63,738 nt of DNA, filler included, from Collodictyon triciliatum (GCA_043381765.1; 6 parts of 6 records of this genome joined end to end with filler, not necessarily neighbours in it); one strand, 5' to 3'; shown: positions 21,726-62,270, counted from the first letter of the whole stretch. The notes: a model not told the origin generated them from the sequence alone. Numbers and translations: made by a program.

Positions 21726-24354
21726 GACCCATTCCAAATTTCAATCACGCCCCTATGCTTAAAATTCTTTCTCTGGGTTACAATCGGTTAGAAGGTGAGT
21801 TATTTTCTGCGTGTGATGTCACCTTTCATAAAAATGCTGCCTCATAGTCTTATTTATGACGTTTCTTACAGGCTCCATCCCAGAACTCGCACACTTAAGC
21901 AACTTGGAAATATTGTCAACTTCAGGAAACAAACTCACTGGTATGTCAAACATCAAGCAAAGGCATATCAAGATGCTATTTTCCTGTTTTTATTCTTCAA
22001 AAAAATTATATCAGCATTTTATCTATATTTGATTCACATAGGTACCATCGCAAAAAATTCCACCTTTCCCATGTTAAAAGAACTCGTGTTGAGCAATAAC
22101 GCACTCTATGGTATGCTCTAACTCCAGTATAAAACTTTGAATTGAATAAAGGAACAAAATCTTAATTTAAAAACGAAGATGCTAAAGACATAGATAGTTT
22201 TTCATGTGTGGATTGCATCCCATCTCTACATTTTTTTTTTTGCTAAATAAATTAAAAGAGCAAAAATCGGATATAGTCTGAGTGATATCGATAAAAGACT
22301 GATACTCACAGCATTATTTACATGCCGCTAAGGTACTGTCCCTAACTTCACTGGTATGACCAGAATTCAAAGCCTCTCTTTAGGAGGCAATCCATTCGAA
22401 GGTATTGATATCCCGAGCTGTGTTCGCTTTTTTTCTTTTACCATGAGCAATCCTTTTTTGGTTGTTTTTCCTTGTTCCCTGTTAATTTTATTGCGTTTTT
22501 GTTTCAGTTACAGTTTTAGTTTTTTTTGTGTTAGTATCATATTTTGAAATGGCCCCAATTCAATTCAATTCAATTCAATTCAATTCAATTCAATTCAATT
22601 CAATTCAATTCAATTCAATTCAATTCAATTCAATTCAATTCAATTCAATTCAATTCAATAACACGTTTGAACGAGAAAAGAGGCTTTAAACCACACTACC
22701 AACCCTTTAACGACTTAGGGACCATACCAGACTTCGATCAAATCCCTAATGTCTTGCGCATAGACCTATCGCATACATTCCTCCAAGGTGGTTTCCATAT
22801 TGATATTTATTTGAAAATTTTCTGACGCAAGTCAACCATATATGTTCTTTTTCAGATTTTGTCGAGGCTATTTTCTATCCCAAACTCTTTGTAGACTTGT
22901 GTTGACAAAAATTCATTTACAAATATATAATTAACATAAATAGGAGCAATACCGGAGTTTGCTTATACACCATATATACAGTATATCTCCCTTTTCAGCA
23001 TCGGCCTAACAGGTTTATATTTTATCCTCAACACTCAAAAACAGTTTTTTTTTTACTTATGCGATAACTTATCTTTGGGAATATGAATAGATTTAAAAGA
23101 GGACCCAAAAATGAAAGGAGCAGGAACAAAATGTATGCACTATTGCAGATGTTATTAATACTTCCAATCATTGATTTGATAGGTACTGTTCCAGATTTCA
23201 GGTATGCATCCAATCTGCTTGATTTATTCCTTTCAGACAACAAATTAAGAGGTAAAAACATATAATTTCACCTGATTCCAGGTACCCTACAGTAATCTCT
23301 CACACTATTTTTCCATCGCTGGGGTTGACAAATATGAATGATATATGAAGTCCTCATACATTTTCCAATAGGAACAATTCCGGAGTTTCGGACTTTATCT
23401 AGCGTTTCTGGCATCTCTCTCTCTGGAAACTTGCTTGAAGGTCTTGCCTCGGATATTTATTATCACTATATTCATTTATGCATCTCGGTCAGGAAAAAAG
23501 AAAAAAGAATATTTTTAAACCTCATTTATCAAAATCAAATGAACAGTTTCTCATCATAAATATCCCAGAATCCTAATACAAATGTTGATTTTGCAACACA
23601 AATGCATTAAAAGGCTCTGTACCTAACTTCGCATCATCCCCCATGTTGATTAAGCTAGATCTACAGGGAAATAGATTGAGTGGTATGAAAAAGTCTGATA
23701 CACATGCATTCATGTTTTAGGCATACAATAGGGGTTTCCACGAAATTGGAATAAACTATTCCTGTTGATAGATACCTATTATCCATGAGCATACGTAAAA
23801 TCAACCCAATCTACTATAACATCTACTATCATACACAAGATTCACATGCTTTGTATAATAGGAACCATACCTGACTTTCCTAGTAAACCGGCCATGAACA
23901 CTCTGCGCTTGAATGATAACCAACTTACCGGTACGTTTGAGTCTTTCATGATACTCTAGTTTTAAATCTTTCTGTAAGACGAATCGAAAGACGGCATCAT
24001 GCGCCTCAAGAAGAAATTTAGATAGGAGCATACATTCATGAGCATGCACACTCTATTATAAGCTTTTAAAAAGATATGTTTGCATAGGAACAATACCTGA
24101 TTTCCAAGGCATGTCAAAGCTTGAGCGATTGTTTCTCTCGAGCAATGGTTTAGTGGGTAATTATTAACCTATGTCCAAATACCAAGTTATATTCATAACG
24201 AAAGTTGCATGGAAGTATTCTTCACAGCCCAGAGCACAATATAATATACCAGGATATAAATACTCTTACTTTACGTCACATATATTATTATTACTATTAC
24301 TATTACTATTACTATTACTATTACTATTACTATTACTATTTCTATTACTATTAC

Positions 24355-24449
<95 letters not shown>

Positions 24450-27400
24450 GATGCTTTGCTGATCTATTATAACTAGGCTACATTCCAAATTTCTCTGCGA
24501 TTCCTCGTGTTTACGATCTTTACTTGGACAGCAACAAACTAAATGGTATATTTTAATCGAAATAAAACGCGTGTTCAGGAAAGTAACATACTTTCCTGAA
24601 AAAAAACATTATGAACCTTATAAAATTTATCTTGAGAAGTTGAACCATTCTCTAGCCAAAACAAAACAAAACTTCGTACAATCGTGCGCAATTTATAACT
24701 AAAAAAATTCACTAGGGACGATTCCTGACTTCGATAACTTGCCTGAAGCGTTATATATCGACATGTCAAACAATATACTAGAAGGTATATCTTAATTCTG
24801 TATCGCTCCATGAACCCATGATTTAAATTAAAAGATTTGCATGTCTTAATTCGGAATAAACTGAAAAAAAAGGAAAAGAAAGATAACAAAGCAGGATATC
24901 CTGTGCAAATATGTTGCTTTTTCATAATACTAGGTTCTATTCCTGACTTCAAGGGCTTACCAAAGTTGATTCACTTGGACGTATCTAGAAACTTTCTCGC
25001 AGGTAAAAATGTCTTCATCGTTGTGAGCTGAACTTTACTGGCTCAAAACTATTTTTTTTTAATATGTTCAGAAGTAATAGCCTCATATCATTCTGATATT
25101 CGAATAATTTTATTTTTCATATATTAACCTTTCAGACCAAATTTAACAAAGTATCATCTCAAAAAAAAAAAAAACCAATAACACAGGTCCCATCACGCAC
25201 TTTACTGGATTAAAAGAGCTGATTACGTTTTCCTCGTATGATAACAAACACTCGGGAGTAATGCCAAACTTTGAAAACTGCATAAACATCAGAAAAATCT
25301 CTATTTTCAGGAATCAGTTAACAGGGTCCCTCCCAGTTTTGAGACTATCTAAGTTGGAAAATCTGGATTTGAGCGAAAACCAATTCTCTGGGTCGATTCC
25401 ACACAGCTGGAACATACCATTGGTTGAATATGTAGACTTATCCCGCAATAATCTTATTGGAGCAGTTCCAACAATCTTTGATTACTTTTATTCCATCAAA
25501 AGTCTTGTATTGGCACACAATAAACTAAGTGGCACGATTCCTGCAACATTTTGGGCGAAAAAGAATCTCGTGCACATCGATTTGGGGCACAACACTTTCT
25601 CGGGTGATATTAGGGATTTTATATCTCCATTTTCTTCTCAATCATATGCAGATTTCATGACGGTTGAGTTTACGTACCAATCTCTAATTCTCGACAACAA
25701 TATGTTTTATGGAGCTATTGATGGTAGGATATATAACTATATCAATAACTTGAAAACCCTAAGCATAAAAAACAACAATATTTCAATGCTAAATGAGGTG
25801 ACTGCTCTCCTCAAATGGTCTCGCTTTGACCTATCAGGAAATCCTATACTTGGAAGTATCCCAGAGACATATGGCCGCTTCTCAAAAATGAGCTATCTTG
25901 GCTTGAAAGATACTCTTATGAGTCATGGAATAAATAATTTTCTTCCTCAATTTATGGATTACAAAGAGCCCTTCAACTTACAAGACAAAGTGCACGCTTA
26001 CATATGTCCATCCATCGATGCCCGAGTAGGAGAAGTAAATATGGACATTGATTTGAACCCAGGTTACTATAATCACTCTCTTTGTCAATGCTTACCAAAT
26101 TACTTTGGATATGGAAATAGCTGCGTTCAATGCCCAAGTGACTGCGAATGCAAAGACGGAATATCCTTGAAAAAATGCTTCGCATCTCCAGGTCCTTACA
26201 ACCTGAAGTCTATCCTCCCTTGTCCAAGAACTGACTCTTGCGATGTTGTAATTCCTGTAAAGAATCCACACACAAGATACCCGCCGAATATAACCACGTA
26301 TTGTCGTAAAGGATACGAAGGTCATGCATGTTCTAAATGTCAGGAAGGATATGGAAGACAAGGAAGATTATGCGTGGAATGCACTGAAGCGGTCAAATAT
26401 TCTACCCTTGCTGCATGCTTGCTAGTCTTGATCTTCTGCGTGGTATGCTTGTACTTCTCAGAGCCTTCAAAGTCAGGTTCATTTTCATATATCGGCACTT
26501 AGAAATTGTATATACTGCTCAATTGTGTTTAATGTCGAGCTCGTATTTTCAAGACTTCTAACAGCAAGTATACATAGCCAACGTCCGAATTATCATTATG
26601 CATGCGCAAACTTTGTCAATCATCTCGGGATTCATCGACTCAAAGACATTGAGCGAGTTCATAGAAATCACATCTTCTGTTGGGTCAATACAGCTGCCTA
26701 ATATTGGATGTCTTCTTGGCTCCACAGATGAACTTGATGCGATAGGCTTCAGCTATTCCAGGATTCCCATTTTTTTGTTCATCGGGTCATTATTCTATTT
26801 ATTTGGCTCGACGGCTATAAAGAATAGGGTAATTTTTTTTTTACGCAACCGAATAAATACGTTTGACACAGATAGATAATAGCACCTCCTTTTCTTTTTT
26901 TCCAAACTTCAAATAGTTTCAATTTAATTACATATCTCATCTAACCAAAAAAATTCTAGGCTATAGTTGTCACATCCAATTTATTGTTTTTCATTTACTA
27001 TTCCATTGCGAGAGATATCTTTGGTGTTCTGGGATGTACCGTATACGATGACGGAGAAGACACTTGGTACCTTAACTATGCACCATGGATTACCTGTGAC
27101 CCAGCATCAGCAGTATATAAAAAAATGCTCGGAATTTCGTGTATTGGATTGGTTTTATTCTTGGTAGGGTTCCCTCTTCTTGTGTATTGGAAAATGCGCC
27201 AGAATGACCTGGACTCTAGATACAGCATTACGCAATCCAGATCAAACTTTGATTTTATGCACATGCCTTACAGAGAGGTTAGGTCAATTATTTTTGGACT
27301 CGTAGCTTTTTCTATCTTTGAAGGTCATCTCTTAACTATCACTAAATTTGCATTACAAAAGAAATTTAGATACTGGGAATTCGTCATCATTGGTCGTCGC

Positions 27401-28022
27401 ATCGCATTTTCTTTCGTCATCAGCGTTGTTCCATATTCGCATGCGACTGCCTTCTTCCTTTTGCTGGTTATCATCATCCAAGTGAGTGTTTTTTTCTCTG
27501 TTAAAGCCGAAATACTTGGATTACAGAGAATCGAATTCATATATTACTTTTTCAATACAGGCTTCCATATGGATACAAAAGGAGTTCAGCCCGTACAAGT
27601 CAGACATGGAAAATAAGATTGAGCTCACTAGTTTATACACAATATTCGTATCATTTTTCCTTGCTCTGCTATCCAGCTTCCTTGGTATCCAGCTGTGGAT
27701 AACTGTCGTCGTGATTGTCATCAACGTTACTTGGCTGCTTTATGTCTACTGGTTCGGAGTAGCCGTCCCCTTCTACAAAATTGCCTTGGTAGCCCACCGC
27801 GTCAGCAATCCGACGTTGACACCCACAGGTGACATAGAAGGAAAAGACGTCGAAGCTATCTTTCAAGACAATGCCGAGGCAGCGGCTGGTACAGGAGCTA
27901 GCCCTCAGAGCACGGGAACAACTCTTGCACCGATGAAAGGGAAAAACACCCACAACTCGGCTGAACTGTTTAACTCCCCCATGGAAGAATCTCAGAGAAG
28001 CGAGGTCGTCAAATCGGAGTAA
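21726..28022 (+). CDS. Cell-surface receptor-like protein, 5' incomplete. Plant-type LRR ectodomain (14 single-repeat exons plus about 10 LRRs in one large exon), Cys-rich stalk, and a C-terminal domain of about 9 TM segments (TRP_C/Flc-like).
   Basis: LRR consensus G.IP.F....L..L.L..N.L.G. Cys-rich stalk CQCLPNYFG...CVQCP, CRKGYEGHACSKCQEGYG. Hydrophobic segments carry FDFMHMPY..KFRYWEFVIIGRR and PYKSDMENKIE. All junctions traced are GT-AG and phase-consistent. Stop TAA at 28020-28022. Confidence 0.9.
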
Positions 28023-28978: not shown

Positions 28979-30250
28979 TTAGTAGACGATTTCCTCCCAG
29001 TCATCGGAGTCATGGGGGCGGTCACGCTGCTGACAATCCTGACCGCTGATAGAAAAAAACTCGAAAGAAGTCCATAATCCAGCTTGGTGGTCGTCCGAAG
29101 CAGACTGAAAGAAAGTTTGGAACCATTAAACCATGCACATATTTCAATTTTCGTTTTGATTGTGGCACGATGAATAAACAGGGGGTTCAAGTCTGGTGAC
29201 AACTATTATATAATGGATGTGTCTAACTGGGTAACCAAAGCAAAAAGTATATTGAAAGACTAATAAACATGAATGTGACTACATTATGAATCCATAACTT
29301 TGTGTTCACCTGTTCGTGAACGATTTTGTCTAAAGCACGGGGTATCTTTAATGCAACAACCTTATAACCTTTATCTTTTGACTGCCGGAATAGCTCTCTG
29401 GAGCCCTGTTAAGCAATAAAATAATGCTCTCTTTAATTTTTATAATAGGAAATAAGACAAAAGACAAGCATTCAAATGTATTCAAGCCCTACATGTATCC
29501 ATGATTCACCAAATTCACATAAAAAGGGAGATGCATATGATCAAGCCAATAACTTCTCTGTCGCATGCGCTTACTGCGTATAGTATTCCAGCTGTACTAA
29601 GATAATTGGATAAGACAGCCATCAATCCACGAACATGTGCCTCTTCATAAATAATATCGGCCCCGATGATAACATCGAAAGGTTGATGAAAGCGCTGGAC
29701 AGTAAGTATAATTCAGCGGCGATACATTTGTTTTGAAACGCGCCTTGCCAATCAAAACGAAAACGAAAACGAAAACGAACAATTAAAGGCATAATTGTGC
29801 AAATAATACGAGTGAAACGATCAATCAGCTAACAAATAGATACATCGGCACATGGATAAACAAATACATAAATTCACATGAGCATGTGTGTATCATGAGG
29901 CAATATTTAAAATTGTATGAATTTCTCTCCGGAAATGTGATGATATTCAAAATCAATAAAACCACCTCATATGTTGGTTCACAACAATCATACCAGTTAA
30001 GTAGTCTGGCGTGGTGCAAATTATTCTTAGTCTTTCAATTCTTCTTTTCAAAAATAAAAAGATATTATGCACACAGGGAGAGCTGATACATATTTTCTCA
30101 ATTTTTGAGACCTTGCTTCTACTTTGCCTTCCATTCCATTAGCTTTAATATTCCTTGTTATAGTTTCAACGATCTTGCGATAATAATTCAAAAATTATGA
30201 TTACCTTAAAGTTTCGTATAAATGACAGAATGTTCCGGTCAGTAGAAATT

Positions 30251-30342
<92 letters not shown>

Positions 30343-30445
30343 AAGNNNNNNNNNNNNNNNNNNNNNNNNNNNNNNNNNNNNNNNNNNNNNNNNNNNNNNN
30401 NNNNNNNNNNNNNNNNNNNNNNNNNNNNNNNNNNNNNNNNNNNNN

Positions 30446-30525
<80 letters not shown>

Positions 30526-31843
30526 TATTGAAACTTACTTTAACTTGATAATCTGTCATCCAAACAAAATCTGCCAGATGCCCAGCTACAAGACCAACAA
30601 GTCCACATCCAGAGCCTATTTCTAAGACCTCTTTACCATCTACAAAGTCCTTATTTTCATGCACAAAACTATTACCAAATGTCGTATCGTTAACTTCATA
30701 ATATGTAGCTCACGATGCAACACTAAATTTATTATATTCGTAATTATTAATAAAAAATATAGATGAGCAATGAAGGATGTCCCTGCAAATTTCTTCACTT
30801 GTTGTCAAAATTCTTTTCTCTTCATAATTCCATAACTTAATAATTGCTTCAAGACAGAAAAAGGCTGATTTACTTATTCAACTTGACAAACGACGGTAAT
30901 GATATAAAGTGTCTAACTTCATTACAAAAACATTCAAGAAAAAGCAAAAAAATATGATACCGGGCCAAAANNNNNNNNNNNNNNNNNNNNNNNNNNNNNN
31001 NNNNNNNNNNNNNNNNNNNNNNNNNNNNNNNNNNNNNNNNNNNNNNNNNNNNNNNNNNNNNNNNNNNNNNNNNNNNNNNNNNNNNNNNNNNNNNNNNNNN
31101 NNNNNNNNNNNNNNNNNNNNNNNNNNNNNNNNNNNNNNNNNNNNNNNNNNNNNNNNNNNNNNNNNNNNNNNNNNNNNNNNNNNNNNNNNNNNNNNNNNNN
31201 NNNNNNNNNNNNNNNNNNNNNNNNNNNNNNNNNNNNNNNNNNNNNNNNNNNNNNNNNNNNNNNNNNNNNNNNNNNNNNNNNNNNNNNNNNNNNNNNNNNN
31301 NNNNNNNNNNNNNNNNNNNNNNNNNNNNNNNNNNNNNNNNNNNNNNNNNNNNNNNNNNNNNNNNNNNNNNNNNNNNNNNNNNNNNNNNNNNATCTTTTAG
31401 ATTGAGAGTTAGCTTCGAGATTGGCATGCTTTGTAGGAAGCTTGATACCACCGAAGATAGCTGTTATTAATTTTTTTAAAGCATGGCCAAAAGAAAAGTA
31501 GCATAAATGAAAACAAATAGAACAAAGGGCAATACACTCTATAGTGGAAGTGAGGAGTTAATTTCATAATAATATCGATGATAGATAAAATTATATCAAT
31601 TCACGCGGTGATATATATTTCCAATTAAAAACTACTAATTTTTTTTGAAGAAATACTAGTAGCTGAAGCAAAAAAAAAAAAATCAATAATACATAACACG
31701 AAAATAAGTTGTTTCCACTTCAATAGTTTATAAGTTAAGTCCACCGCTTATAAGGCGACCAACCCGTTTTCTTGGCGTATATTTGACCAACCTTTACTGG
31801 CGAACAAGGCCGAGACGGTGACTTCTTACTCGAAGACAGCATA
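28979..31843 (-). CDS. Seven-beta-strand protein methyltransferase, family 16 (METTL21/22/23-like). One exon falls in a gap; start uncertain.
   Basis: Motif I and post-I: VDGKEVLEIGSGCGLVGLVA...VWMTDY. Motif II: FDVIIGADIIYEE (DxxY). The last exon ends DDWEEIVY-stop at 28979. Confidence 0.8.
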
Positions 31844-34910: not shown

Positions 34911-38318
<3,408 letters not shown>

Positions 38319-61629: not shown

Positions 61630-62270
61630 TTAGGCGGCGTTGGATTTGCACCATTCGTAGGCATTTGTAAACATGCGTGCCCACGGAGAGAGATGGAGGC
61701 TCGGGTCGCTGCCCCAGCTTTCGTTCTTGAAGGACTCTGGCAAGAATCCCCACTGCCACTTTGTTAGCTGGAGAGTCAAATCATCGGTGTGAGTTTCGAG
61801 ATGGAAAGAGAGGACGATATATTGAAAGGACGGGATATTTTGAAATCCTCTTGTGTTTGGATTGATGCGTACCGCGCGCTCGGGATGGGGCATCATAGCA
61901 AGATGTCGCCCGTCGGGTGAGCACAGACCCGCAATCCCGCTTGGCGAGCCATTCGGATTCAGAGGGTATTCGTTTGTAATCTTGTTGTCGTCGTCAACTG
62001 TGTACCCCGCATCGTGTAAGATTTAAGGTTAAAGAAACTACAATCTTTTTTATCTTTTTTTCTTCTCTTTTTTTTTTCTTCTCTTTTTTTTCTTCTCTTT
62101 TTTTTCTTCTCTTTTTTTTCTTCTCTTTTTTTTCTTCTCTTTTTTTTCTTCTCTTTTTTTTCTTCTCTTTNNNNNNNNNNNNNNNNNNNNNNNNNNNNNN
62201 NNNNNNNNNNNNNNNNNNNNNNNNNNNNNNNNNNNNNNNNNNNNNNNNNNNNNNNNNNNNNNNNNNNNNN

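Follow-up and report, generated by a model that had tools for sequence, protein, structure and literature searches.

An array of 69-nt one-repeat exons in a leucine-rich repeat gene of Collodictyon triciliatum: probably an ancient tandem duplication within an expanded family of diphyllatean membrane proteins

The stretch of DNA considered here, hereafter the window, is a pseudo-molecule of 63,738 nucleotides (nt) from Collodictyon triciliatum (GCA_043381765.1), in which separate contigs are joined by five identical N44-TTAATTAATTAA-N44 linkers (a six-frame stop spacer). The gene of interest encodes a protein with leucine-rich repeats (LRRs) and a predicted multi-pass membrane module, and the repeats of its distal part, or tip, are laid out one per exon over 14 consecutive mini-exons (Table 1). 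All 14 are exactly 69 nt long, with AG before and GT after, and each starts and ends with G, so that a Gly codon is split G/GN at every border (phase 1-1); when joined, they read through without a stop as 14 units of 23 amino acids (aa) each. The layout is thus symmetric, with consecutive exons of one length and one phase carrying one repeat each. The intron before the long exon that follows is likewise in phase 1 at a Gly codon, which brings the homologous intron positions in the available sequence to 15. The array is not a product of chance: when the whole window was scanned blindly on both strands for the pattern AG/G-69 nt-G/GT (slashes marking exon borders) and an open phase-1 frame, 20 sites were returned, among which 14 are the consecutive mini-exons, while the other six are scattered and devoid of the LRR motif. 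These data confirm every interval given in the original prediction, and symmetric exons of this kind would indeed permit skipping or duplication in frame, as had been proposed.

The mini-exons, which were assigned by the consensus G.IP.F...L..L.L..N.L, keep the scaffold of the repeat (G in 14/14, P4 in 13/14, F6 in 12/14, N20 in 12/14 and L22 in 13/14), and positions 7, 8, 9, 11, 13, 14, 21 and 23 of the unit reach entropies of 2.8-3.2 bits. The concave-face residues had been said to differ from exon to exon, and all ten strings quoted in support were found. At the nucleotide level, the exons share 46% identity on average and 61% at most, and identity by codon position amounts to 44, 64 and 29% for the first, second and third positions, respectively, the third positions being saturated and the second constrained. 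There is no adjacency effect, adjacent exons being 45% identical and non-adjacent ones 46%. The introns of the array span 77-320 nt and were also predicted to lack mutual similarity, in agreement with intron-versus-intron blastn comparisons that gave no significant similarity, only low-complexity matches of 9-26 nt (best E = 0.026). The two longest, introns 4 and 11 (317 and 320 nt), owe their size to long microsatellites, namely (ATTCA)n at 22556-22659 and (TATTAC)n/(TTA)n at about 24283-24450; many 100-N gaps of the window likewise fall inside microsatellites. No spare, reverse or degenerate LRR unit was found in the introns of the array, the best intronic 23-aa window scoring -17.1 on a scale where real LRR units score +50 to +62. 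Because the introns hold no alternative LRR exon, mutually exclusive exon choice is impossible in this stretch. Searching further afield, among 29 family proteins (see below), gave no close counterpart of the tip exons either: the best match of any of them is 11-15/23 residues, similar to the best match within the gene (9-13/23). In short, neither nucleotide-level similarity of exons or introns nor intronic LRR pseudo-exons, the signs of recent duplication or shuffling, were found at this locus.

Downstream of the array, the long exon encodes about 10 less regular LRRs (22-36 aa), in keeping with the prediction that the membrane-proximal repeats, here called the base, lie in one uninterrupted exon. 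These are followed by a linker, a Cys-rich EGF/DUF7630-like module and the first transmembrane helix. The Pfam scan for LRRs was made on this exon and matched LRR_1 with 59.3 bits (cut-off 20.6), LRR_4 with 54.7 bits (cut-off 27) and LRR_8 with 48.2 bits (cut-off 27); DUF7630 stays below threshold (E = 0.0036-0.047) where it matches the last Cys-rich piece, and a match to Afaf is at chance level. No Pfam family scored above threshold for the membrane part encoded by the window exons. This part includes a conserved loop with family-invariant C, T, D, G, W, L, P, W and C, and all 12 invariant columns of the family are retained in the window. The 84-nt stretch at 27278-27361 contains no stop and keeps the frame, and its retention would add 28 aa without breaking the protein; it is considered an intron because the homologs lack these 28 aa. 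After splicing, the model comprises 19 exons and 1,134 aa with no internal stop or frameshift, and all introns (18/18) are bounded by GT and AG.

Table 1. Position of the LRR gene, of the contig linkers and of the nearby kinase gene in the window
Feature	Position	Strand	Basis or remark
Linkers N44-TTAATTAATTAA-N44	9020-9119, 21523-21622, 42767-42866, 54345-54444, 60876-60975		Gene neighbourhood across them artificial
Artificial contig junction N44-TTAATTAATTAA-N44	21523-21622	.	Contig of the LRR gene begins at 21623
3′ end of upstream intron; 5′ part of gene missing	21623-21725	+	AG acceptor of first exon; longer homologs
LRR exon 1, 69 nt, phase 1-1	21726-21794	+	Splice geometry and LRR consensus
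LRR exon 2	21872-21940	+	Splice geometry and LRR consensus
LRR exon 3	22042-22110	+	Least canonical: IA.N in place of IP.F
LRR exon 4	22333-22401	+	Splice geometry and LRR consensus
LRR exon 5	22719-22787	+	Splice geometry and LRR consensus
LRR exon 6	22944-23012	+	Splice geometry and LRR consensus
LRR exon 7	23183-23251	+	Splice geometry and LRR consensus
LRR exon 8	23372-23440	+	Splice geometry and LRR consensus
LRR exon 9	23614-23682	+	Splice geometry and LRR consensus
LRR exon 10	23862-23930	+	Splice geometry and LRR consensus
LRR exon 11	24088-24156	+	Splice geometry and LRR consensus
LRR exon 12	24477-24545	+	Splice geometry and LRR consensus
LRR exon 13	24716-24784	+	Splice geometry and LRR consensus
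LRR exon 14	24934-25002	+	Splice geometry and LRR consensus
Long exon, 1,290 nt, phase 1 in and out	25187-26476	+	Boundaries matched by P0310 similarity
Membrane-module exon	26578-26828	+	GT..AG, frame kept, collinear with homologs
Membrane-module exon with conserved loop	26960-27277	+	12/12 invariant columns retained
Membrane-module exon	27362-27481	+	Follows 84-nt intron
Last exon: final transmembrane helices, cytoplasmic tail, TAA stop	27561-28022	+	
AGC kinase gene, multi-exon (Pkinase and Pkinase_C)	34911-38315	+	Same contig as LRR gene

The contig that carries the gene starts only 103 nt 5′ of the first exon, and as an acceptor site precedes this exon, the assembly has cut off the 5′ end of the gene; the 14 mini-exons are therefore a minimum. 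Homologs extend about 220-430 aa on the N-terminal side of the part aligned with the window model, which suggests that a segment of about this size is absent from the 5′ end of the latter. As the window is made of joined contigs, the ankyrin gene found upstream of the LRR gene is not its real neighbour.

The closest relatives of the gene are found in Diphylleia rotans. Proteins of this species derived from cDNA (EukProt EP00002) match 91-99% of the long exon with 35-42% identity and are followed in the ranking by generic LRR proteins only, the best named ones being plant receptor-like proteins (RLPs) and receptor-like kinases. The spliced model is collinear with D. rotans sequences over aa 2-1079 (E = 0), namely P0139 and P0125 (38% identity each), P0004 (36%) and P0001 (35%), and because these are transcripts, their collinearity supports the exon model, removal of the in-frame 84-nt intron included. 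Together with the 12/12 invariant columns, it places the gene in a diphyllatean family defined by LRRs, a Cys-rich region and a multi-pass module. The homologs start with signal peptides, in accordance with the earlier proposal of an LRR ectodomain on a protist membrane protein. The same architecture, with 23-aa LRRs, a Cys-rich module and a membrane module of 9-10 helices, is present in at least 17 distinct D. rotans clusters, more distant members were found in Rigifila ramosa and in Gefionella okellyi, and others on metagenome contigs; a single-protein scan of metagenome contigs gave 27 pattern matches, none of which was confirmed. The full-length paralogs carry 23-44 LRR core motifs, and the gaps that separate them from the window protein in alignments measure 22, 23 and 46 aa. 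P0310, from a 1,790-bp contig (an ncbi/jgi record), represents a paralogous long exon in genomic form (46% identity); its similarity to the window begins precisely with the acceptor-side Gly and ends precisely at the donor, so that the boundaries of the long exon are conserved. The predicted protein of P0310 reads through both splice sites, which shows that annotation of the family is fragmentary in at least one public assembly. The AGC kinase encoded on the same contig as the LRR gene is orthologous to, and collinear with, D. rotans transcripts P0292 and P0296, with 66-95% identity per exon, which indicates that the organism of the window is related to, but not identical with, the D. rotans strain sampled. 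A literature search retrieved no paper combining 'Diphylleia' with 'leucine-rich repeat', and the diphyllatean LRR receptor family appears undescribed in the literature searched.

Tip and base repeats behave differently when compared with those of the homologs. In optimized alignments, identity of the tip LRRs is 0.34-0.39 in register, 0.27-0.32 after a shift of one unit in either direction and 0.16-0.32 over shifts of one to three units; in ungapped alignments restricted to the variable positions, it is 0.10-0.18 in register and shifted alike. Identity of the base LRRs is 0.32-0.39 in register and drops to 0.05-0.16 after shifts of one to three units. Judged from these alignments, the tip repeats are almost generic and the base repeats sharply register-specific. 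One-to-one orthology of the tip repeats with those of Diphylleia proteins was considered and rejected on the basis of the ungapped comparison. The image of a variable tip on a constant base put forward in the original prediction is thus apt as regards generic tip versus individualized base repeats, but not as regards overall conservation, which is similar from region to region (33-38% identity with homologs for the tip, 27-38% for the base, 33-46% for the Cys-rich part and 30-42% for the membrane module).

The membrane module has a much wider distribution than the LRR family itself. With the module alone as the phmmer query (residues 1003-1360 of P0004), 2,372 cluster representatives were retrieved at E <= 1e-3, 175 at E <= 1e-10 and 30 at E <= 1e-30, and in many eukaryotes the module is joined to other ectodomains. 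Of 77 module relatives scanned with Pfam, 19 match the 'TRP' family PF06011 (E <= 1e-3, best 3.9e-12), six match DUF7630 and five match LRR families; neighbours in the ESM Atlas carry Ephrin_rec_like and TRP, which is a lead only. Among PF06011 proteins, those that have been characterized are Flc/TRP-like proteins of fungi with a role in Ca2+ homeostasis (PMC8618638, PMC9600462, PMC10732042). An AlphaFold2 model built from 77 sequences (pLDDT 91.0, pTM 0.88) displays 9-10 long helices and a small beta-hairpin loop bearing two nearly invariant cysteines. A sequence search of the PDB with the membrane exons gave no match. The canonical TRP/polycystin channel fold, with six transmembrane helices in a voltage-sensor-like part and a pore, was also tried and discarded as a match, Foldseek giving no significant counterpart in the PDB. 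With a link to PF06011 that, on sequence grounds, is transitive only, the module would be at best a distant branch of the Flc/Pkd2-like superfamily. It is nevertheless of interest as a widespread eukaryotic module with a branch outside Pfam coverage and a confidently predicted fold that has no PDB counterpart.

These observations are probably best accounted for by a real and apparently intact gene, truncated at its 5′ end by the assembly, whose array results from an ancient tandem exon duplication and is most likely spliced constitutively, diversity residing in the repertoire of paralogs. One exon-plus-intron unit would have been tandemly duplicated long ago, yielding the 14 or more 69-nt phase-1 exons, and the duplicated units would then have diverged to saturation, most likely to be spliced nowadays constitutively into one long solenoid. 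The product would be a large type-I-like surface protein made of an LRR solenoid of at least 24 repeats, a Cys-rich stalk and a membrane module of 9-10 helices distantly related to the fungal Flc/Pkd2-type PF06011 family. The family would be strongly expanded and fast-diverging, and since its paralogs differ by whole LRR units, diversity would sit in the germline repertoire and arise through gene birth and death and through gain and loss of units rather than through somatic splicing. The concave face of the LRRs may bind an external ligand, for example on the surface of prey, a microbe or a substrate, and the membrane module may transduce this binding, conceivably as a Ca2+-permeable channel-like unit, although such a channel function is speculative.

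Several points weigh against this reading. A transcript of the LRR gene was not found, the best protein in two collection searches being 46% identical, so that its presumed splicing and expression are drawn only from homology and splice signals. A search of the shorter length class for the gene's own transcript returned only P0310 (46%) and P0311 (40%). As regards the membrane module, PF06011 has no direct match, even at E <= 10, to the window exons or to the Diphylleia LRR proteins P0129, P0127 and P0122; among non-LRR relatives, the nearest score only 16-20 bits for this family, against a gathering cut-off of 28.5. The comparison of the predicted fold with the PDB by Foldseek yielded nothing at E <= 0.001, the best E being 0.059 and TM-scores not exceeding 0.25; the 50 matches listed include neither a TRP nor a polycystin/PKD chain. 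The last point comes from the D. rotans isoforms, for which 33 pairs of Trinity isoforms in 14 clusters were compared. In one of the 33 pairs, P0010/P0134, the two sequences differ by exactly one LRR unit replaced between Gly positions, with flanks identical save two substitutions just downstream; this could be unit-level alternative exon use somewhere in the family, but a conversion tract between alleles or paralogs explains the difference no less well than a mutually exclusive exon would.

More generally, near-identical pairs of D. rotans isoforms (P0010/P0134, P0162/P0299, P0178/P0301 and P0004/P0130) display short, sharply bounded and highly divergent segments, which comprise an entire LRR unit, a linker some 70 aa long, parts of the tail and, within an irregular LRR, a loop, and for which alleles, recent paralogs, Trinity chimeras and alternative exons are all candidate sources.

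Two rival readings are each rather unlikely. The first is ongoing exon shuffling in the germline, with LRR exons exchanged, duplicated or converted between family members over evolutionary time, on the model suggested for the ROCO genes of Ectocarpus and the LRR genes of Tetrahymena. It would account for the whole-unit gaps between the window protein and its homologs and for the varying number of LRR motifs in the paralogs, for tip repeats almost devoid of register-specific conservation, for the single-unit replacement between two near-identical D. rotans sequences, and for the lack of an ortholog-level match of the LRR gene even though the nearby kinase has its orthologs in D. rotans. However, the gene itself bears no trace of a recent event, in view of its low maximal exon identity, saturated third positions and unrelated introns, and the tip exons find no better counterparts in the 29 family proteins than within the gene. 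Moreover, what the Tetrahymena and Ectocarpus cases rest on, namely young exons that are still similar at the nucleotide level, is absent from the window gene.

The second, which concerns function and is about as doubtful, is adhesion or mechanosensing of a polycystin/Pkd2-like type instead of recognition of prey, pathogen or self. It takes its appeal from the transitive link of the module to PF06011, with its fungal Ca2+-homeostasis proteins, and from the fusion of the same module to other ectodomains in many eukaryotes; on the other hand, a strong expansion of paralogs and generic, fast-diverging tip repeats are more typical of recognition repertoires.

Improbable, yet of wider consequence, is the possibility of a diphyllatean LRR repertoire on a TRP-like module in which diversification operates on one-repeat exons, with single units exchanged among alleles or paralogs or used alternatively, as hinted at by the one-unit replacement in P0010/P0134. 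If true, it would reveal modular recognition of prey or microbes in a predatory, deep-branching eukaryote, independent of that in brown algae, ciliates, plants and animals.

Slightly less probable still is the somatic use of the symmetric exons, by which skipping or alternative choice would generate many receptor isoforms from one gene. The geometry of the array is favourable, since 14 exons all of 69 nt and in phase 1-1 can be spliced in frame in any subset, and arrays of LRR exons are reported to be alternatively spliced in Ectocarpus ROCOs (PMC11378527) and in NLRP3 (PMC6642158). From the family itself, the P0010/P0134 replacement can be adduced, as can P0128, which lacks 12 aa present in P0004, starting from the Gly of a unit and with Val (GTN) as the next residue, a difference that may stem from the use of another 3′ splice site of a phase-1 intron. 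Against this, none of the 33 isoform pairs differs by 23 aa or a multiple thereof, the introns harbour no spare LRR exon, and the two linked downstream substitutions in P0010/P0134 fit alleles or paralogs better. Overall, the proposal that splicing or exon shuffling diversifies the receptor is disfavoured at this locus, where the exons are as divergent as described, adjacent or not, the introns are unrelated and empty, the family proteins scanned hold no close counterpart of the tip exons, and no isoform pair of the relatives differs by a multiple of 23 aa; the P0010/P0134 replacement keeps it under consideration for the family.

Finally, it is very improbable that the LRR gene is not expressed and represents a relic or pseudogene belonging to a large family, with an exon array of no current function, as its missing 5′ end and the lack of its transcript in the protein collections might be taken to mean, given that 1,134 codons over 19 exons carry neither stop nor frameshift, all splice sites are canonical, the 12 family-invariant loop residues are retained, second codon positions are more conserved than third ones (64 versus 29%), as expected under purifying selection, and the sampled transcriptome comes from a different strain or species.

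The window also carries several ordinary genes. Just downstream of the LRR gene lie exons of a Methyltransf_16 lysine methyltransferase (29515-30709, minus strand). Other contigs carry a sulfotransferase (44195-44719, minus strand) and the glutamine-amidotransferase part of FGAM synthase (61630-62022, minus strand). A GC-rich island at 6877-8829 (plus strand), also on a contig other than that of the LRR gene, has 47-52% GC, versus about 34% elsewhere, and encodes Sel1 repeats (E = 1.4e-20) in an open frame of 650 aa, with long open frames on both strands; its composition sets it apart from the remainder of the window and may point to foreign DNA, contamination or an isochore.

The layout of the array has well-known parallels, among them the LRR-ROCO genes of the brown algae Ectocarpus and Saccharina. 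These genes encode proposed immune-type receptors with one LRR per 72-nt phase-2 exon, and young exons, splice variants and intronic non-coding copies of the LRR are reported for them (PMC3341825, PMC11378527). They share with the window gene tandem symmetric exons of equal length, with one LRR each and a unit that starts from Gly (GxxPxxL...LxxLxLxxNxL), but differ from it in exon length and phase (69 nt and phase 1 in the window gene), in the age of the exons, which are saturated in the window gene and separated by empty introns, and in the protein itself, since ROCOs are cytoplasmic ROC-COR GTPases whereas the window gene encodes a secreted ectodomain on a multi-pass membrane module. No ROC or COR domain was matched by Pfam in the downstream exons or in the full-length homologs scanned. 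In another protist, Tetrahymena, LRR genes likewise have arrays of exons of one exact length and one intron phase, with exons of exactly 90 bp and more than 96% of introns in phase 2, clonal exon expansion being the explanation given (PMC6564038). There, the unit has 30 aa instead of 23, and the system comprises thousands of genes with nucleotide-level conservation in young groups, in contrast with a single old locus here.

In animals, human NLRP3 and LRR genes of the NLR/ribonuclease-inhibitor type display a comparable exon-repeat modularity, which for NLRP3 is described as strict and as permitting in-frame alternative splicing (PMC6642158). No NACHT domain was matched by Pfam in the exons of the window gene or in the homologs scanned. 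NLR-type proteins are cytosolic NACHT-LRR proteins, with another LRR class and another exon size than the window gene. In plants, ERECTA-type kinases have one-LRR exons and the plant-specific LRR unit comprises 24 residues. Plant LRR receptor kinases and RLPs resemble the window protein by their extracellular LRRs with the GxIP signature, but the unit of the latter has 23 aa, not 24, and its C-terminal part is a module of 9-10 helices, not a single transmembrane segment. Pfam found neither LRRNT_2 (in the available part) nor Pkinase in the LRR gene. The identity of a plant-type LRR receptor kinase was rejected on the basis of the 23-aa unit and the missing Pkinase match. As to the PF06011 family (fungal Flc1-3, Pkd2-like proteins and Aspergillus nidulans TrpR), the likeness consists of a multi-pass module behind an extracellular domain, which in the window gene is made of LRRs and a Cys-rich region and not of the fungal N-terminal domain.

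The array of the window is therefore a known type of layout with its own unit (69 nt, 23 aa), phase (1), lineage and chassis, and it is devoid of the signatures of recent shuffling that mark the algal and ciliate cases. That it is old and static at this locus lowers its immediate interest, while the membrane chassis is noteworthy in its own right. One-LRR-per-symmetric-exon arrays arose independently in brown algae, ciliates, animals and plants; a 69-nt phase-1 array in Diphyllatea (CRuMs), a deep and poorly sampled lineage, adds a further independent origin and puts the one-repeat exon layout on a different receptor chassis.

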